From a virus: a stretch of 61,774 nucleotides of DNA. How positions within the stretch are numbered: position 1 is the stretch's first letter; each line of letters opens with the position of its first letter. The translations under genes and the position numbers were made by a program. Below the pieces are notes generated by a model that had not been told where the DNA came from, ran no database searches, and saw only the letters and a list, made by a program, of their open reading frames with translations. Shown here piece by piece: positions 26,246-59,775 of the stretch. Location of the stretch: the IMG/VR virus record IMGVR_UViG_3300045988_126226, positions 131,035 through 192,808 of that record, one strand, 5' to 3'.

Positions 26246-26257
26246 GGGATATAAACA

Positions 26258-27515: not shown

Positions 27516-27520
27516 TAAAA

Positions 27521-27664: not shown

Positions 27665-27671
27665 GGTAAAA

Positions 27672-27986: not shown

Positions 27987-28000
27987 AAGAGGAAATAAAA

Positions 28001-28258: not shown

Positions 28259-28261
28259 AAG

Positions 28262-28492: not shown

Positions 28493-28494
28493 AT

Positions 28495-28901: not shown

Positions 28902-29276
28902 ATGTCTACTTCTACTGTTAAGAAGCTCACCAAGCGCGACCGTTTCGAGGCTCTGCTCAAAATGAGCGAGGTTCAGGCGAATCCTGATATGGTGGCGTTC
29001 ATTGAGCATGAGATTGAACTGCTCGCCAAGAAGAACGCGGGCGATAAGAAGCCCACGGCCAAGCAGATGGAGAATGACGCCGTGAAGCAGGTCATTCTGG
29101 ACGAGATGACCGCAAACCCTGACAAGCTGTATACCGTGACCGACCTCATCAAGGGCGTTCCCGAGCTTGCGGAGTATACCAACCAGCGCGTTTCCGCTCT
29201 TCTGCGTCAGATGATTGATGCAGACACGGTTGTCAAGACGGTTGACAAGCGCAAGTCCTACTTCTCCCGCGCGTAA
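28902..29276 (+). CDS. paralog family protein A (124 aa)
   Basis: SD aaaggaa; about 70% identical to 31522..31899; distant paralog at 50327. Confidence 0.6.
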   Translation: MSTSTVKKLTKRDRFEALLKMSEVQANPDMVAFIEHEIELLAKKNAGDKKPTAKQMENDAVKQVILDEMTANPDKLYTVTDLIKGVPELAEYTNQRVSALLRQMIDADTVVKTVDKRKSYFSRA

Positions 29277-29419
29277 GGGTAAAGGGCAGGGGATAAAAAA
29301 AATCCCCTGCCCCACAATAAAAAACTGTTGACAAACCAATAGCAAAGTGCTATACTATTATCAGAGGTTGAGAGAACGATGGTAAACCTCAATCTACTTT
29401 TCCAATAGGAGACGATAAA

Positions 29420-30196: not shown

Positions 30197-30274
30197 AAAA
30201 AAATAGGGAATGGGGCTTGACAAGTCCTATTCCCTATGGTATAATCAATGTATCAAATGAAAGAGGTGTTTTAC

Positions 30275-30553
30275 ATGACTGCTAAACAAGTCCTTTTTGT
30301 AGTCCCTGATGACAATGACCCTCACATGGGCATTTTAATCGACCATGACTATATTATCTGCGCCGAGTGCGGTGGCGTCTTTGAAGCTGACGAAGTTTTC
30401 ATTATTCAGATCTACGACTCTTGGGTAAACTTTGAAGATGAAATTGCGGACGAGCTTGACCTGCTGACCGCAAAAGACATTGGCAAGGAGCTGGATAGCA
30501 AGGAAAAGTTCGGCTGGGACGCGTGGAAAGAAGCCATTAAAGGGGAGTTCTGA
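30275..30553 (+). CDS. hypothetical protein with CxxC pair (92 aa)
   Basis: promoter cttgacaa..tataat, SD aagaggtg, TGA. Confidence 0.5.
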   Translation: MTAKQVLFVVPDDNDPHMGILIDHDYIICAECGGVFEADEVFIIQIYDSWVNFEDEIADELDLLTAKDIGKELDSKEKFGWDAWKEAIKGEF

Positions 30554-30555
30554 AA

Positions 30556-30648
30556 ATGGATTTGGATTTTACTTACATGACCAACGAAGAACTGGACGAA
30601 CTCATCGCTCAGATAAAGGAAGTCAAAGAAACCCGAGCGGAAAGCTGA
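30556..30648 (+). CDS. small acidic peptide (30 aa)
   Basis: ATG 3 nt after previous stop. Confidence 0.3.
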   Translation: MDLDFTYMTNEELDELIAQIKEVKETRAES

Positions 30649-30799
30649 AAGACTGACCTTTGGAGAAACGTTCAGCGGTCGGTTCAGAATTACGTCATGG
30701 AGTGTGGAATGATTGAACTCTTTACCGAGGACTACAATTCCACGCTGGACGCTGATTCTTTCCGTATTCCCGGCGAGATTAACCTGCTGGACTAAAATA

Positions 30800-31030
30800 A
30801 AAAACTGCCCAAAAATGGGCAGTTTTTTTTGTCTATTTTGCCTATTGACAAACGCGGATTTTTGTGATAAAATGGGCGGACCGCTGGCGCATGCGGCGGT
30901 CCGAATTTTTAATTATACCATGCCCCGCCAATTTTGTCAAGAGAAAAGCTGCACAAAAGTAAAGAAAATTTTTTCCCGTAATTTGGTTATTCTGTCAATT
31001 GTAATTTGTGGGCAATCTGCTATAATGAAT
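30800..31030 (+). promoter_or_regulatory. regulatory cassette F: terminator; P1 ttgaca(30845)-gtgataaaat; hairpin cggaccgc..gcggtccg (30875-30903); TGTCAAGAG (30935); P2 -10 tataat (31021)
   Basis: read directly. Confidence 0.55.
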
Positions 31031-31031
31031 A

Positions 31032-31175
31032 ATGTCAAGAGGGAAACCCCTGAGCCACAGGTCGGTGTGGGGCTACGGTTGGAAGTAGCAATAGACCGTT
31101 CACCTATTACGTTAAGGTCTCTTCGGAGCGGAACGCACGGGATAAAAGAAAAAATTCATGAGTTTTTTCTTGAAA
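31032..31175 (+). ncRNA. candidate sRNA 1 (starts AAUGUCAAGAGGGAAA; contains CUC-UUCG-GAG tetraloop hairpin)
   Basis: own promoter (-10 tataat 31021); no SD; only an 18-codon ORF ending in TAG; ends at -35 of next promoter. Confidence 0.45.
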
Positions 31176-31214
31176 ACCTCTTGACAAATCCCAGCGAGTG
31201 TGCTACAATAGAAA

Positions 31215-31440
31215 ATGTCAAGAGGGAGTAGCCCAAGAAATCCGAGGGCGCGCGACTTCGAGAAAGTACAGGAAGTAAACATAATATACCACGTTGTAAA
31301 GCCAAACGTTGAACGCGAAAGTGAGTTTGATTGAGCCAACTATACTCGAAGCGGTTTTCGCTGACAGATAGATTGAACCAACAAACAATAAATTATCCGT
31401 CAGGTCGGGGTAGTAATTCGTGTAAAAAGTTTGCGAAACC
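31215..31440 (+). ncRNA. candidate sRNA 2 (starts AAUGUCAAGAGGGAGU; shares CAGGUCGG motif with sRNA 1)
   Basis: own promoter ttgaca(31181)-N17-tacaat; no long ORF or SD; followed by promoter of 31522 gene. Confidence 0.45.
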
Positions 31441-31521
31441 TCTTGACAAGCACTCTAAAATGTGGTATACTCAATATATCAAAAGGGTAGCGACCTACCG
31501 CCAAAGAAAGGAATTGATACT

Positions 31522-31899
31522 ATGTCTACTTCTACTGTTAAGAAGCTCACCAAGCGCGACCGTTTCGAGGCTCTGCTCAAACTGTCCGAAGTTCAGGCTG
31601 ACCCCGCCATGGTTGAGTTTATCAATCACGAGATTGACCTGTTGGCTCGCAAGAACGCGGGAGACAAGAAGCCCACGGCGAATCAGATTGCCAACGACGG
31701 CTACAAGGACATTATCTTTGCTGAGCTGTCCGCGAATCCCGACAAGCTGTATACCGTGACCGAACTCATCAAGAACGTGGACGGTCTGGGTGACCTCACC
31801 AATCAGCGCGTTTCCGCTCTTTTGCGTCAGATGATTGACGCGAACGGCGTCGAGAAGATTGTGGACAAGCGCAAGTCCTACTTCCGTCTCGCGCGCTGA
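31522..31899 (+). CDS. paralog family protein B (125 aa)
   Basis: promoter cttgacaa(31443)..tatact, SD aaaggaa, TGA, strong terminator 31903-31935. Confidence 0.6.
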   Translation: MSTSTVKKLTKRDRFEALLKLSEVQADPAMVEFINHEIDLLARKNAGDKKPTANQIANDGYKDIIFAELSANPDKLYTVTELIKNVDGLGDLTNQRVSALLRQMIDANGVEKIVDKRKSYFRLAR

Positions 31900-31999
31900 T
31901 TCAGGGGGAGCGCCTGAAAAAAATCAGGCGCTCCCAAAAATTTCTCTTGACATTTGCTGACGGCGGTGTTATAATCATACTTGAAAGGGGGCAAAAGAA

Positions 32000-32407
32000 A
32001 TGCCTAAAATGAGTGAAAAGGACTTTCAGGCAAAGATTGATAATCTAATGAAAAAATTAGATTGTACTGCCGAGGAAGCAAAAGAAATTCTCATGGACGA
32101 TGATGACATTGACCATGGAATCGCCAAGGACTTTGACCTGTCCGCGGAAAAGCTCAAAGAAGCTAACAAGTATTCTAAGACCGGAACACGCAAAGCGCCG
32201 ACCGCTTATAAATTCGAGAAGCGACAGCGCAAGGAAAACCCCACAAAACGCTCGATTATCGCTGAACTTGCGACTTTTTTGCGTGAAAACAGCGAAAATG
32301 CGTGCGAAAATGTGGAAATTACGAATGTGGAGCGCATGATTGCGTTCCATGTGGGCGAAAATGACTACGAATTGACCCTGATTCAGAAGCGAAAGCCCAA
32401 AAACTGA
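32000..32407 (+). CDS. hypothetical protein (135 aa)
   Basis: promoter ttgacat..tataat, SD aaaggggg, TGA, terminator 32412-32452. Confidence 0.55.
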   Translation: MPKMSEKDFQAKIDNLMKKLDCTAEEAKEILMDDDDIDHGIAKDFDLSAEKLKEANKYSKTGTRKAPTAYKFEKRQRKENPTKRSIIAELATFLRENSENACENVEITNVERMIAFHVGENDYELTLIQKRKPKN

Positions 32408-32525
32408 TGAAAAAGGGTGAAAAACCGCTGAAAAATGCGGTTTTTCACCCAAAAACAAGTCAAAAAATGCAAAAAAATAATGGTTGAAAGAACGATGGTA
32501 AACCTCAATCAATAGAGAGGATTTT

Positions 32526-32942
32526 GTGCGAATGGAAGAAATTACTATTAAGCTACGCCGATTTAAGGACGGCAGACCGCCCGTTTCAATGGAGTTTATG
32601 CCCGATTGTGGCGAGAATCTGAAAGACGTTCAAGCGGTTTATTTCTTCAAGTTTTACAACAACAACAAACTTGAATTTAACAAGGTAGGCACTTCCGCAA
32701 AAGACGTTGTAGGGCGCTTACGTGATGAAATCGGCGAATACTCGAAAAAGTATTCTATCACTCGCGTTGAGATTCACCGAATCCGTTCTTGTGGGGACTA
32801 TCCCGCCGAGGGTGCGGAATCGGCATTGCGTGCGGAACTGATTAGACGCTACCCCAAAGCGTTTAGAAAGAATGACCGCTTTTTCAATGTGGACATTAAC
32901 CCCACGGTTTTCGATGAAATTGTAAACGCATTTCTTGCATAA
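32526..32942 (+). CDS. hypothetical protein (136-138 aa; GTG 32526 or ATG 32532)
   Basis: SD agagagga; preceded by conserved leader stem-loop; TAA; terminator 32950-32985. Confidence 0.5.
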   Translation: MRMEEITIKLRRFKDGRPPVSMEFMPDCGENLKDVQAVYFFKFYNNNKLEFNKVGTSAKDVVGRLRDEIGEYSKKYSITRVEIHRIRSCGDYPAEGAESALRAELIRRYPKAFRKNDRFFNVDINPTVFDEIVNAFLA

Positions 32943-32949
32943 ATATTCA

Positions 32950-33062
32950 ATCAGCAGGTTGACTAAAACCTGCTGATTTTTTTTGTGTATTTTGCCTATT
33001 GACACCGATCGGAAAATGTGGTATAATGGCCGGGCCGGGGTGGGACGTCCCGGCCCGATTTC
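32950..33062 (+). promoter_or_regulatory. regulatory cassette G: terminator; P1 ttgaca(32998)-tggtataat; GC hairpin 33028-33057; followed by ~270 bp non-coding with CCATATG inverted repeat
   Basis: read directly. Confidence 0.5.
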
Positions 33063-33336
33063 CCGATCGGTATACCCATATGCAAAATTTCTCATACTTC
33101 TAGCACCTCTCCATATGGCCCAAAAAAATCCCGAAAATTGACTTTTTATAAAAAATATGTTATAATGATAAAAAAAGACTTTTTTAAGCCCGCGTAGGAT
33201 CATATGCCTTTATAATTAATTAAAAATTGCTTCGCCCTTACATTGTTTCACGCGTATGTTTTCGTCCAAAAAAATCTTGACATTTTTAAAAAAAAAGTAT
33301 ATAATATATATAGAAAATAAGAAAAGAGGTATTCAT

Positions 33337-45380: not shown

Positions 45381-46052
45381 ATGAAGAGATTTATTTGTGG
45401 TATTATTGCGATTATCCTTTGCCTTTCGTTGACTGCGTGCGGTGGTCCAGAAGCAACTACAATTACCGCCGAGCCGGAGGATGGCGATGTTAAGCTTTCT
45501 TTCCTTGCTACCTTTTATGATAACTACGGTACTCAGTGGCTTCAATGTGAAGGTGAAACCTTTGACATTAAGCCTAACAAGGTAAAGGAATGGGCTTATA
45601 GCACGGACGGTCATTGGGTTAGTTCTTATTCTCTTTCGTCTATTGTAAGCGTCAATATTGATGGTAAGAGTATTGAGAGTTGCGGTTCTACTATTGTTTT
45701 TGCTAATAGCCGTCTCACTCAGTATGATGTAGATATTCCCGCGGAAGCCTCGACTAATAGTGGCAATGGAGCTAGCATTTCCGCGCCTACCGACCGCCGT
45801 TGGAATGATTATTGGGATCTTTCTTGGTGGTATTTGAAGTCTAAGAATTTGAATAATGCGGATTCCGGCAGTAAGATTGTAGTGATTCAGTCTCAGATGG
45901 GCGACCCCATTTGTATGTTTGTAGGAGATGACGTCTCTTGGGACATTCCAAAGAATCTTCCTAAGACTACTCAGTTGATGATTGATGGTAAGGCAGTATA
46001 TATTCATCGCGCGAATTTCGCCATCATTGATACTGAATTATTCAATAATTAA
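45381..46052 (+). CDS. lipoprotein (223 aa)
   Basis: signal peptide with lipobox LSLTAC; SD aaggag. Confidence 0.6.
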   Translation: MKRFICGIIAIILCLSLTACGGPEATTITAEPEDGDVKLSFLATFYDNYGTQWLQCEGETFDIKPNKVKEWAYSTDGHWVSSYSLSSIVSVNIDGKSIESCGSTIVFANSRLTQYDVDIPAEASTNSGNGASISAPTDRRWNDYWDLSWWYLKSKNLNNADSGSKIVVIQSQMGDPICMFVGDDVSWDIPKNLPKTTQLMIDGKAVYIHRANFAIIDTELFNN

Positions 46053-46416: not shown

Positions 46417-46485
46417 GATCTTTTTGACATTTTTAAAAAAATAATATATAATATATATAGAAAATAAGAAAAGAGGTTATTTGTT

Positions 46486-46996: not shown

Positions 46997-47157
46997 TGGA
47001 TAATTTGTTTATGTGTTATGCGAATCATACTGAGGAACTTGAAAGAATTATCAAGGAAATCAGTGCGGGCGCAACAAGTTTCCAGACTGAACTCACTCTG
47101 ACGGATAGCGATATGGAATATATCCGACGAGAAGTGGAGAGGAGACTAAATGGCTGA
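46996..47157 (+). CDS. small protein (53 aa)
   Basis: TAATG coupling on both sides. Confidence 0.4.
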   Translation: MDNLFMCYANHTEELERIIKEISAGATSFQTELTLTDSDMEYIRREVERRLNG

Positions 47158-48502
47158 AACTAATGTAATGGGAACTTATAAATTCCCACCTAATGTTTTT
47201 GATAAAATCTTAGACAATTTTAGTCAAGCAGTTCAAGATAATAAGTATCATAAGCTTGATTACGTCTTTTGGCGTAAGTTAAAGACTTCTAAGAATAGTG
47301 TTAGGATTGTCGTTAAAATTGGCCTTAATGGCCAAATTTTCTTTGATGTTTTTCCTGATACTTACATTATGAATTCTTTCTTTGCTAATGCTGACGATGG
47401 TTCTTTTGGTGAATTTTTAGCTGATAATGTTTGTAATATTTTTACAAATGATTATGCGATTGAATGTTCGGAAAAGTTTCTTGAATATAAGATGCGTAGG
47501 GCAAAGAAGACTGTTGAAAAGAATAACGATATAAGCAAAACCCGCGATGACTTTGATTATATCAAAGTGTATGACAAGGGAATATGGAGCACAGAATTTT
47601 CTTGTGCGAATACTATTTCTGATGAAGAAGCCCAGAAGATTCTTGGAGAGTTAAATACTACACCTATTACGGTAGTTTCTGATAGCGATTGTATGACTGG
47701 AAAAGTTGCTTCAATTGATTCTAACACGATTTTCGCTACCTCTACTCCTGCCACAATTACACTCGGTAGTAAAATTGACGCAATTAAAGATAAGTGCGCC
47801 ATGCTTGATAACGATTATATTGATGATCGAATCAATAAAGTTTTGAACGAACAAAATACATTTAACAATAATGTTGATAATAAGAAAGGAAATAAGAAAA
47901 TGAAGGCGTTTAATTTTGATTTTGGCCCCTGCACCACTGATAACATTCGTATGTCTATGTATGGCCTGGCCGTAAAGAACGCGAACGGCACTTGGGTTTC
48001 TTACAACCCTGAGAGCAAGGAGATTATCGACGTCGATATCTTCAACTTTGATGGCGGTAAGTTCCTTTACAAGATGCCGGTTGCCATCAAGGACGTTAAG
48101 GTCGGCGACATTGTGATCCACAACCGCAAGGCGATGTTTGTGATCGATGTGTCTGAGACCGGTATGACTGCGATTGATCCGCAGGCTGGTGAGGAGAAGA
48201 AGATTCTGCTTACCAAGTCCCCGTTTGGTTTCAACTTCGCAACGAAGGTCGTGTCTCTCTTTAACATGACTTCTGATGCGCCCACTCCGGATGCGCCGTT
48301 CGGCAATATGCTCCCCTTCCTCATGATGAGTGAGAATAGTGGCGAGTTCGATATGAACACCATGCTGATGCTCTCTATGATGGGCGGTCAGAGTGGCATG
48401 GATTTCTCTAAGAATCCTATGATGATGTATTTCCTTATGAAGGACTCCAAGAACGCGGATGATCTTCTTCCGCTCATGTTCATGGGTAATCTTTGTAAGT
48501 AA
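47150..48502 (+). CDS. large hypothetical protein (450 aa) with Met-rich low-complexity C-terminus
   Basis: ORF track; SD ggagagg; TAA; terminator 48511-48560. Confidence 0.6.
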   Translation: MAETNVMGTYKFPPNVFDKILDNFSQAVQDNKYHKLDYVFWRKLKTSKNSVRIVVKIGLNGQIFFDVFPDTYIMNSFFANADDGSFGEFLADNVCNIFTNDYAIECSEKFLEYKMRRAKKTVEKNNDISKTRDDFDYIKVYDKGIWSTEFSCANTISDEEAQKILGELNTTPITVVSDSDCMTGKVASIDSNTIFATSTPATITLGSKIDAIKDKCAMLDNDYIDDRINKVLNEQNTFNNNVDNKKGNKKMKAFNFDFGPCTTDNIRMSMYGLAVKNANGTWVSYNPESKEIIDVDIFNFDGGKFLYKMPVAIKDVKVGDIVIHNRKAMFVIDVSETGMTAIDPQAGEEKKILLTKSPFGFNFATKVVSLFNMTSDAPTPDAPFGNMLPFLMMSENSGEFDMNTMLMLSMMGGQSGMDFSKNPMMMYFLMKDSKNADDLLPLMFMGNLCK

Positions 48503-48631
48503 ATATAATAAAACCCCTTTCGCAAGAAAGCCCTTTGATTGACCGCAAAGGGCTTTCTTTATTTTTATAAAAAAATATATTATAATATATATATAAGGTT
48601 AAGAAAGATATTAAAAAGAGGTTGATAAGAT

Positions 48632-50236
48632 ATGGCTAATTTATTTGAACTCCTTTCCAAAGAAGATTGCGAAAAGATTGAATGGTATATCCGCAATTTT
48701 GCGGGTCTTGGCGGAGATAGTTCCGATATGAAGGCATCGCTTGATTATATTCTTCGCTTTTGGTCTTATAATAAACAGAGTCTTTATAAGATGCTTGGAA
48801 ATAATCTTATCATTTCTCGCAAGGTAAATTATTCTCGCACCTATGAAGATATGAGCGATGACTATTATGATTATTTCGGTCGAAATGGCGATGGGTATGA
48901 ATTCCGAAATATTTTTTATGAGGGAGTAGAGAATCTTTATCGTGAGGGAGCTCTTACTGATAACCAATATTTTACTATGGCAAATCTTTTGAATGTTGAG
49001 GCTTTAATGTCTAACATTTATGATAGGGAGTCTTTTAAACTTACCTATAACAATAAAACTCTTATGATTAATCAGGGTATGAAGCTTAGTAAGATGCTTG
49101 GTAAGATGAGTGATATCTTGGAGATTGATCGCGATATCTATGAGAAGTTCCGTATCGCTCATTCTCAGTTCCTTAATCAGAAGAATATTTCTGGTGAGCT
49201 TTGTCTTTCTATCCATCCTCTCGATTATATCACTATGAGTGATAATAACTGCGGTTGGGACTCTTGTATGAGATGGCAAAATGGCGGTGGTGAGTATCGT
49301 CAGGGAACCGTTGAAATGATGAACTCTCCTATTATCCTTGAAGCTTATCTCAAATCTGATAAGGATATGGAACTTTGGTATAAGAACGGTCAGCCTGTTA
49401 TGTGGAATAGTAAGCGTTGGCGCGAGCTCTTCATCGTAGACGAGCACCTTATTCTTGGTATTAAGGGTTATCCTTATTGTAATGAAAATCTTGAAAGCAT
49501 TTGTCTTTCTTGGATTAAGGAACTTACTGAGAAGAATCTCGGTTTTGGTCCTTATACTCAGTATCTGAATCAGATTCATAATTATAGCATTAATTTTATT
49601 GGTGAGCTTGATGCAAGTGTATATTTCAATCTTGACACCAATTTTATGTATAATGATATCTACGGAGATCATAACGCTTATATTTCCACTAAGATCTGTA
49701 CTGATGATAATATTGACCTCAATTATTCGGGTGAATCTGAGTGTATGTGTTGCGGAGAGCTTCTTGATGATTCTCTCTTCGATGATAGAGAGAATAACGC
49801 GGAAATGGTCATTTGCACGAGTTGTTCGGGTGCAGTAAAGTGCGATAAGTGTGGCGATATTGTTTATGTCGATGACACTTATAATGTCAATGGAAAAACT
49901 TATTGTGTTTATTGTTATGATGAAAGTACAGAAGTTTGTCCTTGTTGTGAAGTCCGCAAAGATTATGATGATATGAAACAAATCCGCCTTCGATTCCAGA
50001 AGAAGTCAGTTGGATTTTATGCGGATATTTGTTGGGATTGTTGTGAAGATAAAAAAGTAAAGACTTTCTTCACTGGTGAAATTGAAGAAGACAGAGATGG
50101 TTGGCGCACCAATTATTATGTCGATGGAGAAACTCTCACTGAAAAAGGCAGAGATCTCTTTGATATTAATGAAAAGGAATTTATTTCTTGGGTTAATGGC
50201 ACTAACCCAAATCAAAGACCTTCTTTGATTTTTTAA
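48632..50236 (+). CDS. large Cys-rich protein, paralog 1 (534 aa), C-terminal Zn-ribbon cluster
   Basis: middle-type promoter; shared motifs with 52744 gene (S[IV]HPLD[YF]..S[DE]N...W.SC....GEYR.G and WNSK[RK]WR); 8+ CxxC pairs. Confidence 0.6.
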   Translation: MANLFELLSKEDCEKIEWYIRNFAGLGGDSSDMKASLDYILRFWSYNKQSLYKMLGNNLIISRKVNYSRTYEDMSDDYYDYFGRNGDGYEFRNIFYEGVENLYREGALTDNQYFTMANLLNVEALMSNIYDRESFKLTYNNKTLMINQGMKLSKMLGKMSDILEIDRDIYEKFRIAHSQFLNQKNISGELCLSIHPLDYITMSDNNCGWDSCMRWQNGGGEYRQGTVEMMNSPIILEAYLKSDKDMELWYKNGQPVMWNSKRWRELFIVDEHLILGIKGYPYCNENLESICLSWIKELTEKNLGFGPYTQYLNQIHNYSINFIGELDASVYFNLDTNFMYNDIYGDHNAYISTKICTDDNIDLNYSGESECMCCGELLDDSLFDDRENNAEMVICTSCSGAVKCDKCGDIVYVDDTYNVNGKTYCVYCYDESTEVCPCCEVRKDYDDMKQIRLRFQKKSVGFYADICWDCCEDKKVKTFFTGEIEEDRDGWRTNYYVDGETLTEKGRDLFDINEKEFISWVNGTNPNQRPSLIF

Positions 50237-50326
50237 AAAAAATAATATATAATATTTATGTAAGGTAAAGGAAGAAATACTTCCTAAAAATAAAATTGTT
50301 ATTTATGAAAGGTTAAGGTAAAAATT

Positions 50327-50743
50327 ATGACTAATGAAGTTAAGGTTTCTAAGCGCGACTATCTGACCGCGATTATCGGAGCTATGCACACTGGTGAGAT
50401 CAAGTATGATCCCAACGACGTGATCGCATTTTGCGAGCATGAGATTGAGTTGCTTGATAAGAAGACTGCCAAGGCTAAGGAGCGTGCGGCCGCCAAGCGC
50501 GCTGAGGGTGATGAGCTGACCGAGCAGATTTATGACGTTCTTTCTGGCGATGAGTTTATGACCATCCCTGAGATCGTCAAGGCTCTCGGCGATGAGGATG
50601 TCTCTGCGCAGAAGGCAAGTTATCGACTTCGCACTCTTGTGAGCGAGAATCGTGCGGAGAAGACTGAGGTCTCTGTGCCGGGCGCTGATGGCGGTAAGGC
50701 CAGCAAGAAAGTGGCTTATCGTAAGGTCGCTTTTGAGGGCTGA
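50327..50743 (+). CDS. paralog family protein C (138 aa)
   Basis: distant paralog of 28902/31522 (shared FxEHEIELLxKK core); Rho-independent terminator after. Confidence 0.55.
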   Translation: MTNEVKVSKRDYLTAIIGAMHTGEIKYDPNDVIAFCEHEIELLDKKTAKAKERAAAKRAEGDELTEQIYDVLSGDEFMTIPEIVKALGDEDVSAQKASYRLRTLVSENRAEKTEVSVPGADGGKASKKVAYRKVAFEG

Positions 50744-50914
50744 GAATTAAATGATTAAATGGACTGAAAAATTTTCAGTCCATTTTTTCTTGTTATCTGC
50801 TCCGACCGGTGCTGGCCGCATACACCGAAAGTCCAAAAGTAAAAAGCCGTTTAGAATTTTCTTGACAAAATTGGAGTTTTTTGTTATAATTATATTATAA
50901 AGGAGTGATATAAT

Positions 50915-51715
50915 TTGAAATATTGTGTTTCCGTGCGTCAACCTGATGTTGTCCGCGAGAAAGCTGATGAGCTTATGGTTAATTATAATGATATAAACAT
51001 TATGTATGATATGATTTAGAAATTCCCCAATAAGCGATATATTATCAGAATCCGCAAAAACGAAGAAGTGAATTGGGAAGAGATTGACTCCTTTAAGGAT
51101 AAAGTCGATCTTATTGTAGCATTTGAAGATATGCTTACTCGTAATGGGTGTAATATTGATGTAAAGTATTATTTCGCTTATCCTGCTACTACATGGGCGG
51201 AAGTCCGCGTTCTCCTTGATCTTAAAGTTAGCGAACTTTTCATCGGGGCACCGCTTACGTTTGATTTAAAACAATTAAATCAGCAAGCAAAAGTTCCAAT
51301 TCGTATGATTGCGAATAAATGCTATGACGATAACCTTCCAAGAGAAAATGGAATATGCGGCTCCTACGTCCGACCGGAAGATGTAGATTATTATGGAACA
51401 TATGTTTCAACGTTAGAATTCGATGAACCCGCACTCTCTAAGGAAGCCGTGCTTTTGGATATCTACCAAAGCGGTCATTGGCAAGGTAATCTAAACCTTT
51501 TATTAACTAATTTAAATTATAATGCGGATAATCGTGGAATTCCCGAAGATTTTGGCCCTAACCGCATTAATTGCGGTCAGCGCTGTCAACGACAAGGTAC
51601 TTGCCACTATTGTGAAACCGCGTTTATATTCTCTCGTGTTATAGATAAAGCAGTTCAAGCAAGCAAGCAGAATAATCCTATCTCCGAGGCGGAAGAGGAG
51701 TCAATTGACAAATAA
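50915..51715 (+). CDS. hypothetical protein (up to 266 aa if TTG 50915 and TAG readthrough; 215 aa if GTG 51068)
   Basis: SD aaaggagtg before TTG; C-terminal CGQRCQRQGTCHYCE motif. Confidence 0.4.
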
Positions 51716-51766
51716 AAAAAATAATGTTATAATATAAATATAAGATAAAAGATAGGAGAATAAACT

Positions 51767-52873
51767 GTGAGAGGTTTTAAAACTAATGAACTTTGGTTAT
51801 TTGAATATCTGGTTCGCTCGACGCAAGATGAGTTAAGAGAATATGTTGCCGATGTATTGAAAGCTAAATACACTCAAGTAATTGATACTAAAGAGTATGT
51901 TTGCGCGGTTGGGGATATTCCAATCGCATTAGTGGCTCATCTTGATACGGTGTTTGAGAAGCCGGTCAAAGATTTATATTATGATACAAGAAAAAATGTG
52001 CTTTGGTCTCCGGATGGGCTTGGCGCGGATGATAGAGCGGGAGTATATGCGATTCTTCATATTTTGAGAAATACACCTTTGCGCCCTTCTATTATTTTCA
52101 CTACCGATGAAGAGCTTGGTGGATTAGGCGCCGAAGCATTAGTATTACAGTATTTTGATTGTCCGTTTCCTGATTTGAAATATATTATTCAATTAGATAG
52201 ACAAGGTACAAATGATTGTGTGTTTTATGATCTTTACAATCCTAAGTTTATGGATTACATTGAGTCTTTTGGATTTGTAGAGGATTTTGGCACGTTTAGC
52301 GATATTAGTATTTTATGTCCCGAATGGAAAATTTGTGGTGTAAATCTTTCAGTAGGTTATAAAAACGAACATAATCGTATTGAAACATTAAATGCGGGTG
52401 CTCTTTTTGACACAATTAATAAGGTAATCCGCATGCTCCAAGAAAAAGTTATCCCTGATTTTGAGTATTATCGTGATTACCATAGTGTTTGGTTCGATAA
52501 TATGTGTAAAAATTTCCCAACTGATGGCGATGGATTCTACGTTCATTGTAGAGGATGCGGTCAGTTATTTAGTGAATATGAAACATTTCCAGTAAAGGGA
52601 TTAGATGGACATACATGTTTTTATTGCCCTGATTGTATTCCCAGTAATGTTGAATGGTGTGCGGAGTGTGAAGAGGCATTTGAGATTGACCCTGCGAACC
52701 CACACAGCGAGTATTGTAAAGATTGTATTGGAGGATTAGTCAAATGTCATATGACTTCGACATCGAAAGCATTAGAGAACAGTTCAACAAAGTCATCAGT
52801 TACTCCCAAGGAATCAGTAATCCAAAAACAGAAGAACTATTCGAAAGATTCCTCGAAGCCAAAAAAGACTTAA
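51767..52873 (+). CDS. M20/M28/M42-type Zn metallopeptidase fused to C-terminal Zn-ribbon module (368 aa, GTG start)
   Basis: metal-ligand motifs AHLDTV, GADDRAGV, TTDEELGGLGA; C-terminal C..C..C..C pairs; last 130 nt overlap next gene. Confidence 0.55.
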   Translation: MRGFKTNELWLFEYLVRSTQDELREYVADVLKAKYTQVIDTKEYVCAVGDIPIALVAHLDTVFEKPVKDLYYDTRKNVLWSPDGLGADDRAGVYAILHILRNTPLRPSIIFTTDEELGGLGAEALVLQYFDCPFPDLKYIIQLDRQGTNDCVFYDLYNPKFMDYIESFGFVEDFGTFSDISILCPEWKICGVNLSVGYKNEHNRIETLNAGALFDTINKVIRMLQEKVIPDFEYYRDYHSVWFDNMCKNFPTDGDGFYVHCRGCGQLFSEYETFPVKGLDGHTCFYCPDCIPSNVEWCAECEEAFEIDPANPHSEYCKDCIGGLVKCHMTSTSKALENSSTKSSVTPKESVIQKQKNYSKDSSKPKKT

Positions 52874-54177
52874 TTAAATTTTTTCACGGTCATTTAATTT
52901 ATGAGTGGCCGGAAAAGGTATCTTTTTCCTTAGATGATAAAACTAAAGAGCATCGTCTTGAAGAGTTTCTTGAAACAATTAATTATACTTATAATAATGA
53001 AGATTTAAAAGATTTTATTTCAGTAAATAAAGAAGGATTCTTTAATAATACAGTTATAGATACTTATTTTTATAAGGATAAAAAGATTCCAAGAGGAATG
53101 AAATTAGTTAAGGCTTTTAAGTATTTTGAAGAGAATCCGCGCTCTTTGGAAGATATCCAAAATTACGCAAGTCGCATTATCCAAGAGGATAAGATTGAGG
53201 GAACATTATGTTTCTCAGTTCATCCTTTGGATTTTTTGAGCGTAAGTGAAAATACTTACAATTGGCGCTCTTGCCATGCGCTTGACGGCGAATATAGAGC
53301 AGGAAATTTATCCTACATGGTAGATAGAAGTACTTTTATTTGCTATTTGCGCGGAGCGGAGAATCAGAAACTTCCGCATTTCCCTGAAGATGTTCTTTGG
53401 AATTCTAAGAAATGGCGTATGCTTCTTTACATGGAAGATAAACGACGCGGTCTGATGGCTGGTCGTCAATATCCTTTTATGACAACCAATGCTTTAATTA
53501 AAATTAAAGATATTATCAATACTTTTGATAAGGCTTTTCAGCTGCGTGAATGGGTAGACGGAGGTATTACTACTGTCTCTAATAGGATGAGTAGCACTCC
53601 TTTTGGAGAAGAGACTATTGGATTATCTGAAACATGGATTCCTATTTTGTCTCGTTTATATCCTATTAGTGATATCGTTGAAGATATTGGTGAGCATACT
53701 CTTCAATATAATGATTTGCTTTATTCTTCTTGCTATTTGCCTATTTATAGTTTAAAATTGTATTATTATCCATTTGACAAGACTGATCTTCCTCATTGGT
53801 CTATTGGTGGTGATGTTCCTTGTTTACAATGCGGTAAAACTATAATTGAAAGTGGAGAATATATGCGATGCGGAGATTGTGAATTCAGTTATGGAGTAAA
53901 TGAAGACGATAACTATGGTTATTGCGCTTGTTGCGGTTCTCGTATAATCCTTGATGAAGCAAATTCCGTAGGCGATGAAAATGAATTGGTTTGCGATAGT
54001 TGTGCGGATACTTATTGTAAACGATGCGAATGTTGTAATAATTTATATTATACAGAAGATATTCACTATCATAAAGGAACTGATATGTATTTATGTCCTT
54101 GGTGCTTTAGAGATGCTGGTGAAGAAAAAGTTAATAATTTTAGGTCTTTAAAAGACTTTATACATAATTTTAGTTAA
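52744..54177 (+). CDS. large Cys-rich protein, paralog 2 (477 aa)
   Basis: ATG 52744 with SD ggagga; paralog of 48632..50236 over whole length. Confidence 0.6.
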   Translation: MSYDFDIESIREQFNKVISYSQGISNPKTEELFERFLEAKKDLIKFFHGHLIYEWPEKVSFSLDDKTKEHRLEEFLETINYTYNNEDLKDFISVNKEGFFNNTVIDTYFYKDKKIPRGMKLVKAFKYFEENPRSLEDIQNYASRIIQEDKIEGTLCFSVHPLDFLSVSENTYNWRSCHALDGEYRAGNLSYMVDRSTFICYLRGAENQKLPHFPEDVLWNSKKWRMLLYMEDKRRGLMAGRQYPFMTTNALIKIKDIINTFDKAFQLREWVDGGITTVSNRMSSTPFGEETIGLSETWIPILSRLYPISDIVEDIGEHTLQYNDLLYSSCYLPIYSLKLYYYPFDKTDLPHWSIGGDVPCLQCGKTIIESGEYMRCGDCEFSYGVNEDDNYGYCACCGSRIILDEANSVGDENELVCDSCADTYCKRCECCNNLYYTEDIHYHKGTDMYLCPWCFRDAGEEKVNNFRSLKDFIHNFS

Positions 54178-54258
54178 GGAGAATTATATATGGCTAAAGG
54201 TAAAAAATGATTAATCCTTTAGCCATAAAATTCTATTTCTATAAAGGGAGTTGATTTT

Positions 54259-54996
54259 ATGATTGATGAAACTGGAAATAGATACGGTAAATTAACTGTT
54301 ATAGAATATGTTAAAATTAAACAAAAAACCGGAAAAATAAAAGGTAAATGGAAATGTTAGTGTGATTGTGGAAATATTGCTTATTGTGATGGAGCAGATT
54401 TAAGAAGAGGACATTCTACTTCTTGCGGATGTTTATAGAAAGAAAAAAGTAAAAAAAGTGTTTTTATTGATTTAACTGGATAGCAATTTGGAGGTTTAGA
54501 AGTTTTAGAGAGAGATATGAATTATTAGGGACATGGCTCTAGGACTCATTGGATTTGTAAATGTCATTTTGCGGAAATATAAAGAGTATTGGAAGTTATG
54601 CTTTAAGAAAAGGCCAAGTTGTTTCTTGCGGATGCTAGCGATCTAAAGGCGAATTAAAAATTGCTAAAATGTTAAATGAAAATAATATAAAATTTGTTTA
54701 GGAATTCAAGTTTGAAGGTCATAAAAATAGACGTTTTGATTTTGCAATATTGGATGATAATAATAAAGTAATTCGTTTAATTGAATTTGATGGAATTCAG
54801 CATTATTATAAGCCTAGAGCAAATCATTGGAGTGCTAGTTCTACTTTAGAGGAAACATAGTAGAGAGATAAAGAAAAAAATAATTTAGCTAAATAGTATA
54901 ATATTCCATTAGTTAGAATACCTTATTGGGATATAGATAAATTTACTATAAAAGATTTGATAAATAATGATAAATTTTTAATTAAGGAGAATTAAA
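54259..54996 (+). pseudogene. frameshifted paralog of the 40346 Zn-ribbon/PD-(D/E)XK endonuclease (TAG-rich)
   Basis: N-terminal repeats and C-terminal RFDFAILDDNNKVIRLIEFDGI-Q-HYY domain both present, but need a frame change near 54566 (2-nt indel relative to copy 1) plus TAG readthrough. Confidence 0.45.
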
Positions 54997-54997
54997 T

Positions 54998-55306
54998 ATG
55001 GCAAGCAAAGGTGCAGTAGCTAAGGAACAAATTGCCAAGAAGATGGCAGAAACATTTGGCGCTGACTGGATCGGCGAGAGAGATAAAAAGTATTACCTTT
55101 GGGCTAATGAGAATGGCGAGCGAATTCAGATTGCTATTAGTATGACGTGTCCCAAGACCCCGGTCGGTGAAGCAGGCGCAACCGCGGATTCAAATGTTTT
55201 GAATTTTGAAGATGGGGCAACCGCAGGCGGAGAAACACAGGTTGAAATTACTGTGGATGAAAAGAAAAATGTCGCCGACCTAATGGCAAGATTGGGATTG
55301 AATTGA
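54998..55306 (+). CDS. hypothetical protein (102 aa)
   Basis: SD aaggagaa; TGA; clean terminator 55320-55345. Confidence 0.55.
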   Translation: MASKGAVAKEQIAKKMAETFGADWIGERDKKYYLWANENGERIQIAISMTCPKTPVGEAGATADSNVLNFEDGATAGGETQVEITVDEKKNVADLMARLGLN

Positions 55307-55424
55307 TTTAAAGAGTAATGTCATTTGACATTACTCTTTTTTATTTAACCAAATTAAATTAATGACTTACCTATAAATTTTTAAATTTTATAGAAATAAT
55401 AAAATTTATAAGGAGGTCATTTAA

Positions 55425-55976
55425 ATGGCAATTCCAAAAGCTATAGAACATATGCGTAGTGGAAGTGGTAGTTTAGAAATTATTCCAATTACTTCTACTG
55501 ATGGATTAACTTACACAGGAACCGCAAGATCTATTAAAGAATATAAAGACGGAATGATTATTGGCCTTATTCCAAATATGAATAACGTTGCAACAAATCC
55601 CATTACTAATATAACAATAAATATAAATGGATTAGGTCCTTTAAAATTAACTCAATATTTTATTAAAAAAGAGCACTCTAATAATGGATTAGGGTGTTGG
55701 CATTCAAATACTGCTGTAGAAGCAAATTTTTTATATAAAGATGAAGCTTTTATTGGTCAAATACAATTACAAGAATCTAATAATTATATTTTACCTATCA
55801 ACCCAGGATTAGATTTAACTTAGATTACTAATGGCTCTATGGGGTCTAATTTATCTATTACTGCTAATTCTTCTTATTTAAATAATAATATTTTAAGAAA
55901 TATTAAAATATCTACTTCCGCACCCACTTCTTCAGATGGAAATGTTGGAGATATTTGGATTTAGTATTTCACTTAA
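55425..55976 (+). CDS. late tail-associated protein (183 aa, 2 TAG)
   Basis: SD aaggaggt; frame open to TAA only with TAG as sense. Confidence 0.45.
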
Positions 55977-55992
55977 TAAAGGAGGGATTTAA

Positions 55993-57408
55993 ATGCCAAA
56001 TACTTATAATCCTTCTGGCACTTCTATAACTGACTATTCTTCTATTAAATTTATCCCAGGAGATACTATTAATGGTAGTTATTCGGGAGCAGTAAATCCA
56101 GTAAAGCTTCCCGCAGGAAATTATCAACTAGAGTGTTGGGGTGGTTATGGTGGAATCGGCTATTCTGGTTCTTTAACTTCATCAACAATGACTTCATGGA
56201 TATATATAGGAAGTGGTAATGCAACTAGCTATTTTAACATTAATAATGATTCAAATTATTATTTTCGTCAAGATGGAAATGATTGGATAGCTACTAATGG
56301 AGGAATAAATTCAAGTACTGCTACAACTACATTAACTTGTACTTCTGGAGGAACTTATAAATTTTCATATTATTATAAAACTGAAGCGGGCTATGATGAA
56401 GTCACTTTAATAGTTGGAGGAACTACAGTTTTAAATGCTGTTTCTGGATCAAGTTCTCTTACTACCACTGGTACTTACTCTTTATCGTCAGGATCTACTA
56501 TTGTAATGACTTACTCTAAAGACAATTCAAGTTCAGTAGATAATGAAGAAGTTTATTTTTAGATTCAAAAATAGGAAAGTAGTACCACTTATACTCCTGC
56601 GAGTTCAAAAAATAGTTATTGGGGTGGGACAGGGGGATATTCTACGGGTATTCTTTCTTTATCAACCCCAACTTCTATTTATTTGTATACAGGGGGGCAA
56701 GGTAATTATTCAAGCGATAGCGAAAAAGGCAAAACGGTTGATGGTGGATTTAATGGAGGAGGTAGCTCTAAAATTAGATGGTATACTTCTGCTTATAGTT
56801 CCGGCGGTGGTGGTGGTGGAGCTTCTGATATTCGTATTGGATCAGATTCTCTTTACGCTCGTGTAATCGTTGCTGGTGGTGGTGGTGGCGGAGCAGGAGA
56901 AAGTAAATCTTCTGTTAAACAAGGTGGTGGATTAACTGGTAATTCTGCTGTTGAAGAATATAAAGCTACATAGACTAAAGCTGGTACTAATGGATCATTT
57001 GGGTAGGGAGCTAATTCTACTGGTTCTGGTAATTATAATTATGGTCCTGGTGGCGGTGGTGGCGGCTGGTATGGCGGCGGTGCTTCTACTAATGTAAGCG
57101 ATGGATCTGCTGATTATAGAACTTATAACGGTGGTGGTTCTGGTTATGTATATACTTCATCAACTGCTTCTAATTATCCCTCTGGCTGTTTATTAAATAG
57201 TAATTATTATTTAACAAATGCTTCTACTACAATAGGATATAGTAAAACTAATCCAGGAGGAAAACATGGATATATTCGTATTACTGTATTATCACCATTA
57301 AATGTAAAAATTAATTCTAATACTTATGTCCCTATTAAAGCAATATATACAAAAATAGATAATACAACTTGGAAAGGAGGTATAACCACATGGCAACCTA
57401 TGACTTAA
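55993..57408 (+). CDS. Gly-rich fibre/receptor-binding-like protein 1 (471 aa, 4 TAG)
   Basis: SD aaaggaggg; ORFs 55993..56562 and 56683..56973 co-linear via TAG; GGGGGGA and NGG repeats; motif LPAGNYQLECWGGYGG; C-terminal HGYIRITV. Confidence 0.5.
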
Positions 57409-58691
57409 CTTCTTCAATTCCTTCTTCTTCTTTTTTAAAAACGGGAGATATATTAAATTGTCCTTATAGCGGAACATATAAATCTATTACTCTCCCAAAA
57501 GGTACTTATAAATTAGAATGTTGGGGTGCTTAGGGAGGAAATGGAACTGCTTCTCCTTCTAATAATTCTCAATTATTTGGAGGAAAAGGAGGTTATTCAT
57601 ATGGAGTTTTTTCTCCTACTTCAGATACAGTTTTATACCTTTATTCTGGAGGACAAGGGGCAACTGCGACTGATACTTCATCCGGCCCAAATGGAGGATA
57701 TAATGGAGGAGGAGCTGGCAGTAAAAATGGAGATAATAATTCTAATACTCAAACTTCAGGTGGAGGAGGAGGAGCAACACATATTGCGATTACTTCAGGA
57801 TTATTAAATACTTTGTCTTCTTCTACGGCTTCAATTTTACTCATAGCTGGTGGAGGAGGAGGAGCTGGAGGTTGGTATGGTTCTTTCTCAACTCAATCTA
57901 GTGATGGCGGATATGGAGGAGGAAATTCTGGAGGATCTGCAGCGAATGGAGGAGGATATTCCGTCTCAGGAGGAACTCAATCAAGTGGATACTCTTTTGG
58001 GCAAGGGGCTAGTGCTTCGACTCATGTAGACCAAGGAGGTGGCGGAGGAGGATATTATGGAGGATATTGTTCCACTGGCACTTCAGATAGTAATATTTGT
58101 GGAGGAGGCGGGGGTTCTGGATATATAAATACTTCAAAACTTACTTCTGCTTCCACAATAGCTGGTAATACTTCATTTACATCTCCAACAGGGACAACTG
58201 AAACCGGACACAGCGGAAATGGATATATAAGAATTACTATTTAGTCTATTGTTAACTGGGCTTATTCTACTATATCAATATCTGCTCCTACTTATAATAA
58301 ATAGAATACTTCTTCTTGGACTTTGACTCCAAGTGCTTGTCGTTATTTTTCTTTTACCCCTACTATTTCAGGAGATTTTATTGTTTATTCTAATTCTTCA
58401 ATAGATACTTATGGTTATTTAACATCAAGTATTACTTCTCTTAATAATAGTGGATCGCCTTCTTCTAATATTTTAGCTAGTAGTGATGATTCCGCAAGAA
58501 AATATGGTGGATCTGGATATAATTTTGGTATTTGTTATAAAGTTACTGCCGGAACTACTTATCATATATTCGTTAAACCTTATAGCGATTCTACTACAGG
58601 TTCAGTATACTTAACTTATTATATGGCTCATCCTGATAGTAGAGTATATGTAAAAATAAATAACACTACATGGAAACTAATAACGAATTAA
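57390..58691 (+). CDS. Gly-rich fibre/receptor-binding-like protein 2 (433 aa, 3 TAG), paralog of previous
   Basis: SD ggaaaggagg; motifs LPKGTYKLECWGAQGG, LYSGGQG, NGYIRITI; includes ORFs 57813..58244 and 58323..58691 in one frame. Confidence 0.5.
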
Positions 58692-58770
58692 AAAATTTTT
58701 TGACATTTTTAAAAAAATAATATATAATATATTTATAAAATAAAGAAAGACCTTTACAGCAAAAATAACT

Positions 58771-58841
58771 TCCAGAATAGACTAAAGGTTAGGTCATAAT
58801 CATTTAAGATTAAGTTAATGGTTCAAATCCATTTTCCGGAC
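58771..58841 (+). ncRNA. tRNA-like element with non-canonical 6-nt anticodon loop
   Basis: acceptor 6/7 bp, D arm with GG, perfect T arm aatgg-ttcaaat-ccatt; anticodon stem taatc/gatta closes a 6-nt loop ATTTAA; needs tRNAscan/Infernal. Confidence 0.25.
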
Positions 58842-58863
58842 AAAGTTAAGGTCTTGTTTATAC

Positions 58864-58948
58864 AAGGGGGTCGCATAGCGGCGATTGCATCGGTCTCCAA
58901 AACCGACGGTTAATACCCACCAGGGTTCGAGTCCCTGCCCTCTTGCCA
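58864..58948 (+). tRNA. tRNA with anticodon CCA (Trp-type) but long variable arm
   Basis: acceptor aaggggg/ccctctt, G73, anticodon arm tcggt-CUCCAAA-accga, variable hairpin ggt-taat-acc, T arm caggg-ttcgagt-ccctg, encoded CCA. Confidence 0.6.
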
Positions 58949-59028
58949 AAACATTTACTTTGGAGGTCGAATTTATATAATTATATAAAAATAAATTTTA
59001 TATAATTATGAAAGGTAGATGTTTAATT

Positions 59029-59775
59029 ATGATAGGAATTTATAAAATTACAAATAAAGTAAATAATCATTGTTATATTGGATAGTCAATAAATATTTAT
59101 GATAGATGGAAGCATGAAAAAAGTGATGCTTTTCGTGAATAGAGTAAAAGTTATGATTATCCTCTTTCACGAGCATTAAGAAAATATGGAGTAGAGAATT
59201 TTACTTTTGAAATTTTAGAAGAATGTTCTCGTGAAGATTTAAATAAAAAAGAAATTGAATATGTTAAAAAATTTAATAGCTATAATGATGGATATAATTA
59301 GACATTAGGTGGCGATGGAACCAAGGGGTTTCAAATAAAATTATCTAATGAAGATATTTATGAAATATATAAATTACTATTAAATGAAGAAATTACTCAA
59401 AATGATATAGCAAAAAAATATGGCGTTGGGATAGATACCATATCAGAAATAAATCATGGGAAAACTAGAATATTAGATGGTTTTACATTTCCTTTAAGAG
59501 ATAATAGAAAAATTCATTTTTGTGTTGATTGCGGAAAAGAAATTTATCGTAGCTCTATAAGATGTAAAGATTGTGATTCAAAAAATTAGAGAAAAGTAGA
59601 ACGTCCTTCTCGTGATATTTTCAAATCTGAAATTAGAAATATTTCTTTTTTACAATTAGGTCATAAATATGGAGTTAGTGATAAATCAATATCTAAATGG
59701 TGTAAATATTATAATTTACCTAGTAAAAAATCAGATATAAAGAAAATTTCTGATGAAGATTGGAAGAATATTTAA
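59029..59775 (+). CDS. GIY-YIG homing endonuclease, I-TevI-like with Zn finger (248 aa, 4 TAG)
   Basis: N-terminus MIGIYKITNKVNNHCYIG-TAG-S (GIY...YIG); DRW; CVDCG..CKDC zinc finger; SD aaagg. Confidence 0.6.

Follow-up and report, generated by a model that had tools for sequence, protein, structure and literature searches.

A conserved cassette of predicted early/middle genes in a TAG-recoding gut phage combines a Cys-rich orphan protein family with an M28-type hydrolase

Which function does a phage derive from a block of genes made up of two large Cys-rich paralogs, a putative metallopeptidase and a set of smaller partners? Such a block is present in the 61,774-nt stretch of phage DNA analyzed here (IMG/VR record IMGVR_UViG_3300045988_126226, positions 131,035 to 192,808), hereafter called the window, to which all coordinates refer. 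It was read across positions 47150-55306, with all genes on the + strand, and is a conserved early/middle-gene cassette of the order [g450]-P1-g138-g266-pep-P2-g102, where P1 and P2 are the paralogs, pep is the peptidase and g450 is an optional member. The phage itself is a member of a large gut-phage clade with contigs of about 125-200 kb, in which TAG is recoded as Gln. The first-pass annotation, made from the DNA letters, had guessed at "processing, host takeover or anti-defence"; of the explanations weighed below, we tentatively favor an enzyme assembly for establishment or host takeover that is built on the pair of a P protein and the peptidase. The members of the cassette are the following (dN/dS, ratio of non-synonymous to synonymous substitution rates; pLDDT, predicted local distance difference test):

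47150..48502, + strand: g450, 450 aa, acidic, with a C-terminus rich in Met; found upstream of P1 as an optional cassette member.
48632..50236, + strand: P1, 534 aa, an orphan alpha/beta core and six CxxC pairs; dN/dS 0.12-0.21.
50327..50743, + strand: g138, 138 aa; its N-terminal domain is followed by a coiled segment of Lys/Ala and, at the C-terminus, by a winged-helix-like domain.
50915..51715, + strand: g266, a TIM barrel with an invariant C-terminal Cx3Cx5Cx2C cluster and an RPED motif; TTG start.
51767..52873, + strand: pep, an M28-type di-zinc hydrolase domain at about residues 1-240.
CxxC at 261, 284/287, 298 and 317 of pep, + strand: double Zn-ribbon tail, followed by an apparently unconstrained Ser/Lys-rich end that overlaps P2.
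52744..54177, + strand: P2, 477 aa; AlphaFold2 model with pLDDT 88, no solved structural relative; core dN/dS 0.01-0.04.
54998..55306, + strand: g102, 102 aa, acidic; a 55-aa N-domain and a C-terminal helix with the end LGL are conserved, whereas the acidic linker between them varies.

The paralog pair and its peptidase

That P1 and P2 are full-length paralogs, as the first-pass annotation had claimed, was borne out by BLASTP, which detected 30% identity over a 150-aa core (E=2e-17), and by a joint alignment of 45 sequences from both families, in which the two are collinear end to end. This alignment contains 33 invariant columns, among them S143, G153, P161, D163, S168, N170, W174, S176, C177, G182 and G187 as well as W219, K222, W224, R225, Y243 and P244, and all of the motifs listed previously (S[IV]HPLD, W.SC, GEYR.G and WNSK[KR]WR) were found. 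Both paralogs indeed carry C-terminal CxxC pairs, but their number had been set too high: instead of about eight, six pairs are conserved, corresponding to about three Zn sites, with 11 invariant Cys in a set of 12 positions and C451 kept in at least 90% of the sequences. In the most distant homologs, those from Enterococcus phages and Vescimonas, the residues Pro161, Asp163, Trp174, Ser/Thr176, Cys177, Gly182, Tyr184, Gly187, Arg225 and Tyr243-Pro244 persist, and His160, Arg185 and the WNSKKWR motif are lost. Their conservation over this distance suggests that the persisting residues may form a catalytic or ligand-binding center.

No family had been recognized for the paralogs, and sequence, profile and structure searches likewise gave no known family. 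Neither the single sequences nor the 45 members matched a known family in Pfam, and the same was true for NCBIfam; PHROG matches were confined to families of unknown function (for P2, phrog_18912 at 2e-18 and, weakly, phrog_29713), no NCBI cluster names were found for homologs, and nothing useful was found in the literature on the relevant PHROG identifiers, on PcfJ/PcfK/YodL or on Enterococcus phages. The AlphaFold2 model of P2 consists of a helical N-domain, an alpha/beta core carrying the invariant residues, a beta-rich domain and a tail of small zinc knuckles, the WxSC...GxY loop (175-182) being the sole low-confidence segment of the core. A Foldseek comparison of this model with the PDB returned LIM/RING-like fragments only, and profile searches of PDB sequences, performed with alignments of the full-length protein and of the core, returned Zn fingers only and left the core unmatched. 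Every test in this analysis thus left the P core an orphan. It is already catalogued as PHROGs of unknown function, and it is new with respect to how far it stands from known families rather than to a demonstrated mechanism. The family is nevertheless large: P1 and P2 each had more than 2,200 matches in a metagenomic protein collection (two sets that possibly overlap), and the family amounts to 3,911 clusters at 50% identity, 2,088 of which were matched at E<=1e-30.

With regard to the tail, the CxxC array of P aligns to LIM/treble-clef fingers, namely to the LIM domains of CRP1/CRP2 (E=2.3e-5 over 70 residues for the P profile against CRP2 LIM) and weakly to the Cys-rich region of PriA, and Pfam LIM was matched by 3 of the 45 members (best E=0.031). 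In contrast to LIM, however, the ligands of P are all Cys and its six pairs for about three Zn sites depart from the two-Zn LIM unit; moreover, the context of P is bacterial or phage, and the likeness may reflect CxxC spacing alone.

The description of pep as an M20/M28/M42-type metallopeptidase with HxD, DD and EE ligands agrees with both the ligand conservation and the profile matches. In Pfam, pep reached 21.1 bits for M28 (PF04389; cutoff 21.3 bits, E=2.8e-4) and 19.6 bits for M20 (PF01546; cutoff 24.6 bits); it matched ArgE- and PepT-type models in NCBIfam and peptidase families in PHROG at 1e-41 to 3e-17 (phrog_34186 at 1.3e-41, phrog_4191 at 1.9e-27), and its motifs align to PepT and tripeptidase structures. 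The five metal ligands of M28 (clan MH), here H58/D88/E116/D144/H202, and the adjacent catalytic Glu, E115, are all present and are conserved to at least 93% in 28 homologs including those of Enterococcus phages and Vescimonas; judging from this ligand conservation, the hydrolase looks active. With the members of clan MH (M28, M20, M42; PHROG 34186, 4191 and 21791) pep shares the HxD, GxDD, EE, D, H set, and its ligand spacing is like that of single-domain M28 aminopeptidases, whereas it differs in having neither the M20 lid nor the M42 PDZ-like domain and in being fused to a double Zn ribbon common to the P proteins. In hhalign, this fused tail, which had also been noticed before, matched the four C-terminal CxxC pairs of the P tail (E=2e-5, probability 77%); one and the same Zn module is therefore present in three proteins of the cassette.

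The overlap between pep and P2 is exactly the 130 nt reported earlier (52744-52873). Among the loci fetched for comparison, which bear L numbers, the overlapping pep tail is kept in the close relatives L002 and L009 (the latter with a pep 96% identical to that of the window), whereas in distant relatives pep ends just before P2. Because dN/dS in the pep frame of the overlap is about 1.2 as compared to L002 while the P2 frame is constrained, this end of pep is probably an unconstrained extension.

Outside the clade, GenBank phages with P homologs were the Enterococcus phages VRE9_1-4, H1, EF1 and EF5 only. In these, a 623-aa P1-like gene lies upstream and two P2-like genes flank the peptidase gene (phrog_18912 - phrog_34186 - phrog_18912); members of PHROG 18912 and 29713 (EF1, EF5, H1, VRE9) flank the same peptidase family in the arrangement P...P-pep-P. 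The Enterococcus versions belong to PHROG families without an assigned function and differ in that some P copies have no Zn tail and the TIM-barrel, g138 and g102 partners are missing. In VRE9_3 and H1 the P and pep genes head a block of ribonucleotide reductase (RNR), helicase and DNA polymerase III (PolIII) genes. In addition, in an integrase-bearing element on pMM35_02 of Vescimonas fastidiosa, a P-like gene (hhalign probability 98.8%) and an M28-like gene, located next to the integrase, close an operon in which they are preceded, in this order, by genes for a lambda-exonuclease, a RecD-like helicase, YodL-CHC2, PcfK, PcfJ and LigA. The presence of both partners in Enterococcus phages and in Vescimonas indicates that P plus peptidase was the ancestral unit. 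PcfJ (PF14284), a conjugative-plasmid protein encoded in the same Vescimonas operon, resembles P by eye in the order of short motifs (PxN/D ... C..G.Y ... beta strands), but the profile comparison was negative; an assignment of P to PcfJ was rejected, as P had no Pfam match and hhalign, when the P core (16 or 77 sequences) was compared with an alignment of seven PcfJ sequences, gave a probability of 0.1%.

The helicases, ligase, exonuclease and PolIII encoded next to the pair could point to an accessory role in replication or recombination, where the Zn-finger proteins would load or organize the replisome and g102 would be an adaptor recruiting a host factor via its C-terminal peptide. Such a role would be in line with the weak match of the Cys-rich tail to the PriA Cys-rich region and with the LMxxLGL end of g102, which presumably resembles C-terminal clamp-binding peptides. 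However, ATPase, primase, nuclease or OB folds were not detected, the proteins are acidic, a search of 46-56 kb for an origin or iterons returned promoter/leader repeats only, and an intact peptidase would have no obvious role, which makes this explanation quite unlikely.

Conservation, coding and transcription of the cassette

Co-occurrence of the genes across phage genomes had been suggested as a check of the module, and the cluster proved to be conserved as a unit in relatives. A tblastn comparison of the seven proteins with the fetched loci found the order P1-g138-g266-pep-P2-g102 in L002, L004 and L006; of 80 IMG/VR loci, about 69 have it in full and 78 have pep and P2 as neighbors, and it also occurs in about 20 contigs of GTDB metagenome-assembled genomes (MAGs), down to about 30% identity. 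The phage contigs bearing the cassette are mostly about 125-200 kb long. One of them, the 163,874-bp contig of L009 (CAMELE010000001.1), binned as "Mollicutes MAG," belongs to the same species as the window phage. Cassette contigs of 150-176 kb were binned to MAGs of Mollicutes, Saccharibacteria, Nanosyncoccus, Treponema, Lachnospiraceae and others, and probably are binning contaminants rather than prophages. DNA-level similarity to the window was not detected among GenBank phages. By terminase, the closest cultured relatives are Enterococcus phages (47% identity), followed by Geobacillus E3, Phass-1 and SPbeta-like phages, and judged by this marker the closest cultured relatives of the clade infect Firmicutes.

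Comparison with L009 and L002 revealed dN/dS values below 0.3 in every cassette gene (span 0.02-0.27), with g266 (0.02-0.09) and the P2 core being the most and g450 and P1 the least constrained. In accordance, identity to L002 is 62% for g450 and P1 and 84-93% for the other members. The number of P copies ranges from 1 to 3 per genome, and P1 is duplicated in L038 and a few IMG/VR loci.

The cassette also stands apart in its coding. In the window, the total length of open reading frames (ORFs) of at least 250 aa more than doubles once TAG is counted as sense, and late/structural genes with TAG occupy positions 1-17132 (- strand) and 54259-59775 (+ strand). The head/packaging genes (portal, terminase, virion proteins), located on the - strand at 1-17 kb, have 1-13 in-frame TAG codons each, as compared to a single one in about 2,300 codons of the cassette. 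The latter, at 51017-51019 in g266, aligns with CAA (Gln) in L002. The TAG codons of the late genes together with this lone cassette TAG thus indicate a phage of the code 15 type (TAG=Gln) with TAG-free early genes. As a separate observation, a tRNA-like gene lies at 58771-58841 just downstream of a perfect promoter (58700-58948 region); ARAGORN named no anticodon for it, its loop reads ATTTAAG, and it is possibly of UUA/suppressor type. Behind it lies an 85-nt tRNA-Trp(CCA) gene with a long variable arm, the only one of the two that Rfam calls as a tRNA.

This distribution bears on a structural or morphogenetic function, e.g., of a prohead protease with scaffold-like partners. Although peptidases are common in head maturation and Gly-rich fiber-like genes (55993-58691) lie downstream of the cassette, the head/packaging genes are encoded on the opposite strand and are TAG-rich, whereas the cassette is essentially TAG-free. 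Moreover, M28 is not known as a prohead-protease family, and the P and pep genes are also present in a non-phage integrative element; a morphogenetic function is therefore highly improbable. The gene order kept in about 100 loci, the purifying selection, the single TAG and the presence of sigma-70 promoters agree in showing that these are non-structural genes forming a conserved functional unit, as had been proposed.

By contrast, the view of the region as one co-transcribed module could not be upheld: it is split by strong terminators after g450, g138 and g102 and by at least four promoter/leader elements (48546, 50213, 50862 and 51705), as listed here.

46424..46452, + strand: perfect TTGACA-N17-TATAAT promoter of the unit ending with g450, inside a 66-nt repeated element.
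48524..48559, + strand: intrinsic terminator after g450, a 14-bp stem and a T run.
48546..48611, + strand: copy of the 66-nt element upstream of P1, with a good -10 and a weak -35.
50213..50278, + strand: copy of the 66-nt element upstream of g138 (TTGATT-17-TATAAT), overlapping the 3' end of P1.
50757..50785, + strand: intrinsic terminator after g138.
50862..50890, + strand: perfect sigma-70 promoter of g266, with a TG extension.
51705..51733, + strand: perfect sigma-70 promoter of pep-P2-g102.
55310..55339, + strand: intrinsic terminator after g102.

The internal terminators and promoters therefore describe a string of short units for the host polymerase, not one operon, and from this arrangement only pep-P2-(HNH insert)-g102 looks like an operon. 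The window contains 21 perfect TTGACA-N17-TATAAT sites where 0.03 are expected. Three of them serve the cassette (46424, 50862 and 51705, the latter two with 12/12 consensus), and the 66-nt promoter/leader element occurs in five copies, including those upstream of P1 and g138.

Elsewhere in the window, 15 of the 21 perfect promoters lie within the 12.5 kb from 20790 to 33305, where GC is higher (0.40-0.46) and the ORFs are all small. Behind most of these promoters there is a ribosome-binding site with an ORF of 42-166 aa, and behind a few there is no ORF; with this density of promoters, the segment has the appearance of an early region. On the upstream side of the cassette, the early genes include one at 45381-46052 for a DUF5052 protein (E=5e-43) that carries a lipoprotein-type signal peptide. 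A gene for a phage sigma factor (16077-17185, - strand; phrog_5767) with 2 TAG codons has a perfect sigma-70 promoter in front of it, which suggests a cascade from host polymerase via phage sigma factor to late genes.

Promoters of the early type and coding without TAG would also be expected for counter-defence, i.e., if, shortly after the DNA has entered the cell, P and the hydrolase inactivated or destroyed some component or signal of host immunity, with several P paralogs in a genome to meet several targets. The varying number of P copies, the fact that g450 and P1 evolve fastest among the members, and the location of the Vescimonas pair in an operon with a PcfK/"AcrIIA9 family" protein and PcfJ on an integrase-bearing element would fit this explanation. 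Known anti-defence proteins, however, are mostly small, single and patchy in distribution, whereas the cassette is near-universal and fixed in position in the clade, which is core rather than accessory behavior, and dN/dS is low throughout, the P2 core included. Furthermore, PADLOC found no match for P1, P2, pep, g266, g450 and g102, and for g138 only a chance-level match to LmuB at 0.013. Taken on these grounds, counter-defence appears unlikely.

Partner genes and guest genes

The 450-aa gene at 47150, counted as part of the module by the first-pass annotation, is a real gene (dN/dS 0.23-0.27) without a family match in Pfam, PHROG and NCBIfam searches, but it stands next to P1 only in part of the relatives: in L002, L004, L009-L011, L015, L016 and at least 26 IMG/VR loci, being absent elsewhere. 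The position of g138, which matched HTH_20 weakly (E=0.003), is conserved in nearly all loci. In the early region, a gene with its own perfect promoter (28902-29276) encodes a 124-aa g138 paralog, which has the N-terminal KRD...AF.EHEIELL motif in common with g138. For g102, no relative was found in PDB or Pfam, and its dN/dS is 0.07. In L085, a gene inserted immediately before g102 (8088-10283) encodes a 731-aa protein with an FGE-sulfatase domain; the tail of this protein is similar to the C-terminus of g102 (...LMxxLGL-COOH). All cassette proteins are acidic, with pI values of 4.6-5.3.

The CGQRCQRQGTCHYCE protein, g266, had been given a length of 215-266 aa; its true length is 266 aa from a TTG start at 50915, and the 215-aa ORF (51068-51715) represents g266 without its true N-terminal part, which holds the TAG. 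Modeled via a homolog with 65% identity (P0242), it forms a TIM barrel predicted with very high confidence (pLDDT 95.8), and none of 45 members of the family had a Pfam match. As compared to TIM-barrel metalloenzymes with Cys clusters (U32/UbiU-V type, IspG), g266 matches no better than it does dozens of unrelated barrels, and it could not be placed among the peptidase U32/Fe-S TIM barrels; its Cx3Cx5Cx2C cluster lies after the barrel, with a spacing unlike the one we take to be typical of U32. The chorismate mutase gene in L004 had prompted a reading of g266 as a prephenate-dependent hydroxylase of the U32 type; this was rejected, as the fold match is generic and without sequence support and the insert is located at a moron hot spot.

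Insertions in relatives concentrate at the junctions P1|g138, g138|g266 and P2|g102, and in the window the last of these is occupied:

54190..54995, + strand: guest HNH/DUF2726-type homing-endonuclease gene, frameshifted and with 9 TAG codons; outside the cassette proper.

On either side of this guest lies one copy of a 27-nt direct repeat (54168-54194 and 54976-55002), by which the ribosome-binding site and start of g102 are duplicated. It is absent from L002 and L009, and inserts of the same size are found at P2|g102 in L066-L070, L077, L078, L080, L083 and L084. The genes inserted in relatives encode homing endonucleases, an RF2-type release factor, a transporter together with chorismate mutase, and the FGE-sulfatase protein, and are treated here as probable morons. 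The transporter, of the Na+/sulfate-citrate family, is encoded at g138|g266 in L004 (6276-7943, followed by chorismate mutase) and in L057 (2927-4351). The RF2-type gene (PCRF and RF-1 domains, SPF, GGQ) lies between g138 and g266 in L062 (1620-2702) and L066 (3627-4709), and bears on how TAG-recoding phages retain UGA/UAA termination. A tie between the cassette and the TAG code switch, considered in view of RF2 in these two loci, was judged unlikely because P and pep are also present in the Vescimonas element and in Enterococcus phages, for which the standard code was assumed. In the close relative L001, 1.3 kb past g102 and after two small genes, positions 4892-13251 encode two radical-SAM proteins, a glycosyltransferase domain and YcaO; this cluster, absent from the window, looks like a peptide-modification cluster.

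The inserts have to be considered also with respect to a small-molecule or nucleotide pathway, in which P (with a Cys nucleophile), the TIM-barrel/Cys4 enzyme and the M28/M20-like amidohydrolase would act as consecutive enzymes on a metabolite, a nucleotide or a modified base. The transporter and chorismate mutase in L004 and the transporter in L057 might be seen as parts of such a pathway, but, being located at a terminator/promoter boundary that is also used by RF2 and homing endonucleases, these guest genes probably are unrelated morons. The cassette does comprise three enzyme-like proteins with highly constrained cores, relatives in M20/M28 include deacylases and amidohydrolases (the ArgE and PepT types in NCBIfam), and the cassette of phage H1 heads an RNR/flavodoxin/thymidine-kinase/replication block. 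On the other hand, no nucleotide- or cofactor-binding fold was recognized in P, the Zn-ribbon/LIM-like tails point to macromolecular partners, and the Enterococcus and Vescimonas versions have no TIM barrel, so that we regard a pathway of this kind as improbable.

Proposed role in phage establishment

The cassette fits a constrained early enzymatic system that is a core trait of the clade and is located near DNA-establishment/replication genes, and the enzyme assembly for establishment or host takeover is the explanation we tentatively prefer. Its ancestral core would be a P-family protein and an intact M28-type di-zinc hydrolase. We propose that the invariant residues of P (Pro-x-Asp, Trp-x-Ser/Thr-Cys, Gly-x-Tyr, Arg and Tyr-Pro) would surround the flexible loop as an active site with a Cys nucleophile, and that the LIM-like double Zn-ribbon tail on P1, P2 and the hydrolase may dock these proteins to each other or to a common macromolecular target. 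The proteins would be made from host sigma-70 promoters ahead of the switch to TAG=Gln decoding, and the assembly would covalently process or modify a host or phage macromolecule during the set-up of phage DNA replication, with the TIM-barrel/Cys4 enzyme, the winged-helix protein and the acidic g102 as putative clade-specific accessory subunits. The constant pairing with an apparently active hydrolase, the TIM-barrel/Cys4 protein and the shared Zn tail argue for chemistry rather than scaffolding, while P catalysis, complex formation, timing, target and biological role are the parts of this proposal that we infer.

Several points weigh against the proposed assembly. The catalytic role of P is putative, its supposed catalytic Cys having been deduced from conservation and lying in the low-confidence segment 175-182, and the expression timing of the cassette is a prediction from the DNA sequence. 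The acidic nature of the cassette proteins argues against direct nucleic-acid binding. Furthermore, the same peptidase family occurs in the Thermus phage P23-45 (gp56) and in Lactococcus P087-like, Bacillus Tsamsa-like and Cellulophaga phages, where no P partner was detected, the neighborhoods having been read for P23-45 and LW31 only, and P2 has no copy in L030, L031, L036 and L038; hence, the partnership is not mutually obligate. Finally, Zn tails are absent from the Enterococcus P2-like proteins, the Vescimonas pep and some P or pep homologs in L021, L026, L027 and L038, which means that docking via the tail cannot be essential to the core pair.

A further-reaching interpretation, possible but rather doubtful, is that P represents a new enzyme superfamily of about 4,000 clusters at 50% identity, whose fold would have no solved relative and whose Cys-Asp-Tyr-Arg center would be carried by a mobile loop. 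Together with the M28-type metallohydrolase, P would form a mobile two-gene module. In large relatives of Firmicutes phages and in at least one integrative element, this module would perform a covalent chemistry that has not been described before, directed at establishment against a target in the host or associated with DNA, e.g., as a new mechanism of counter-defence or macromolecule modification.

Being very large, constrained and absent from Pfam, NCBIfam and the PDB, the P family marks a blind spot in phage annotation. The family is fixed at one position across an abundant gut-phage clade, and its occurrence in the cultured Enterococcus phages H1, VRE9 and EF1/EF5 makes it genetically testable now. 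A new activity of P would give early phage-host biology an additional enzyme class, and even a mundane one would allow thousands of "hypothetical proteins" to be named.

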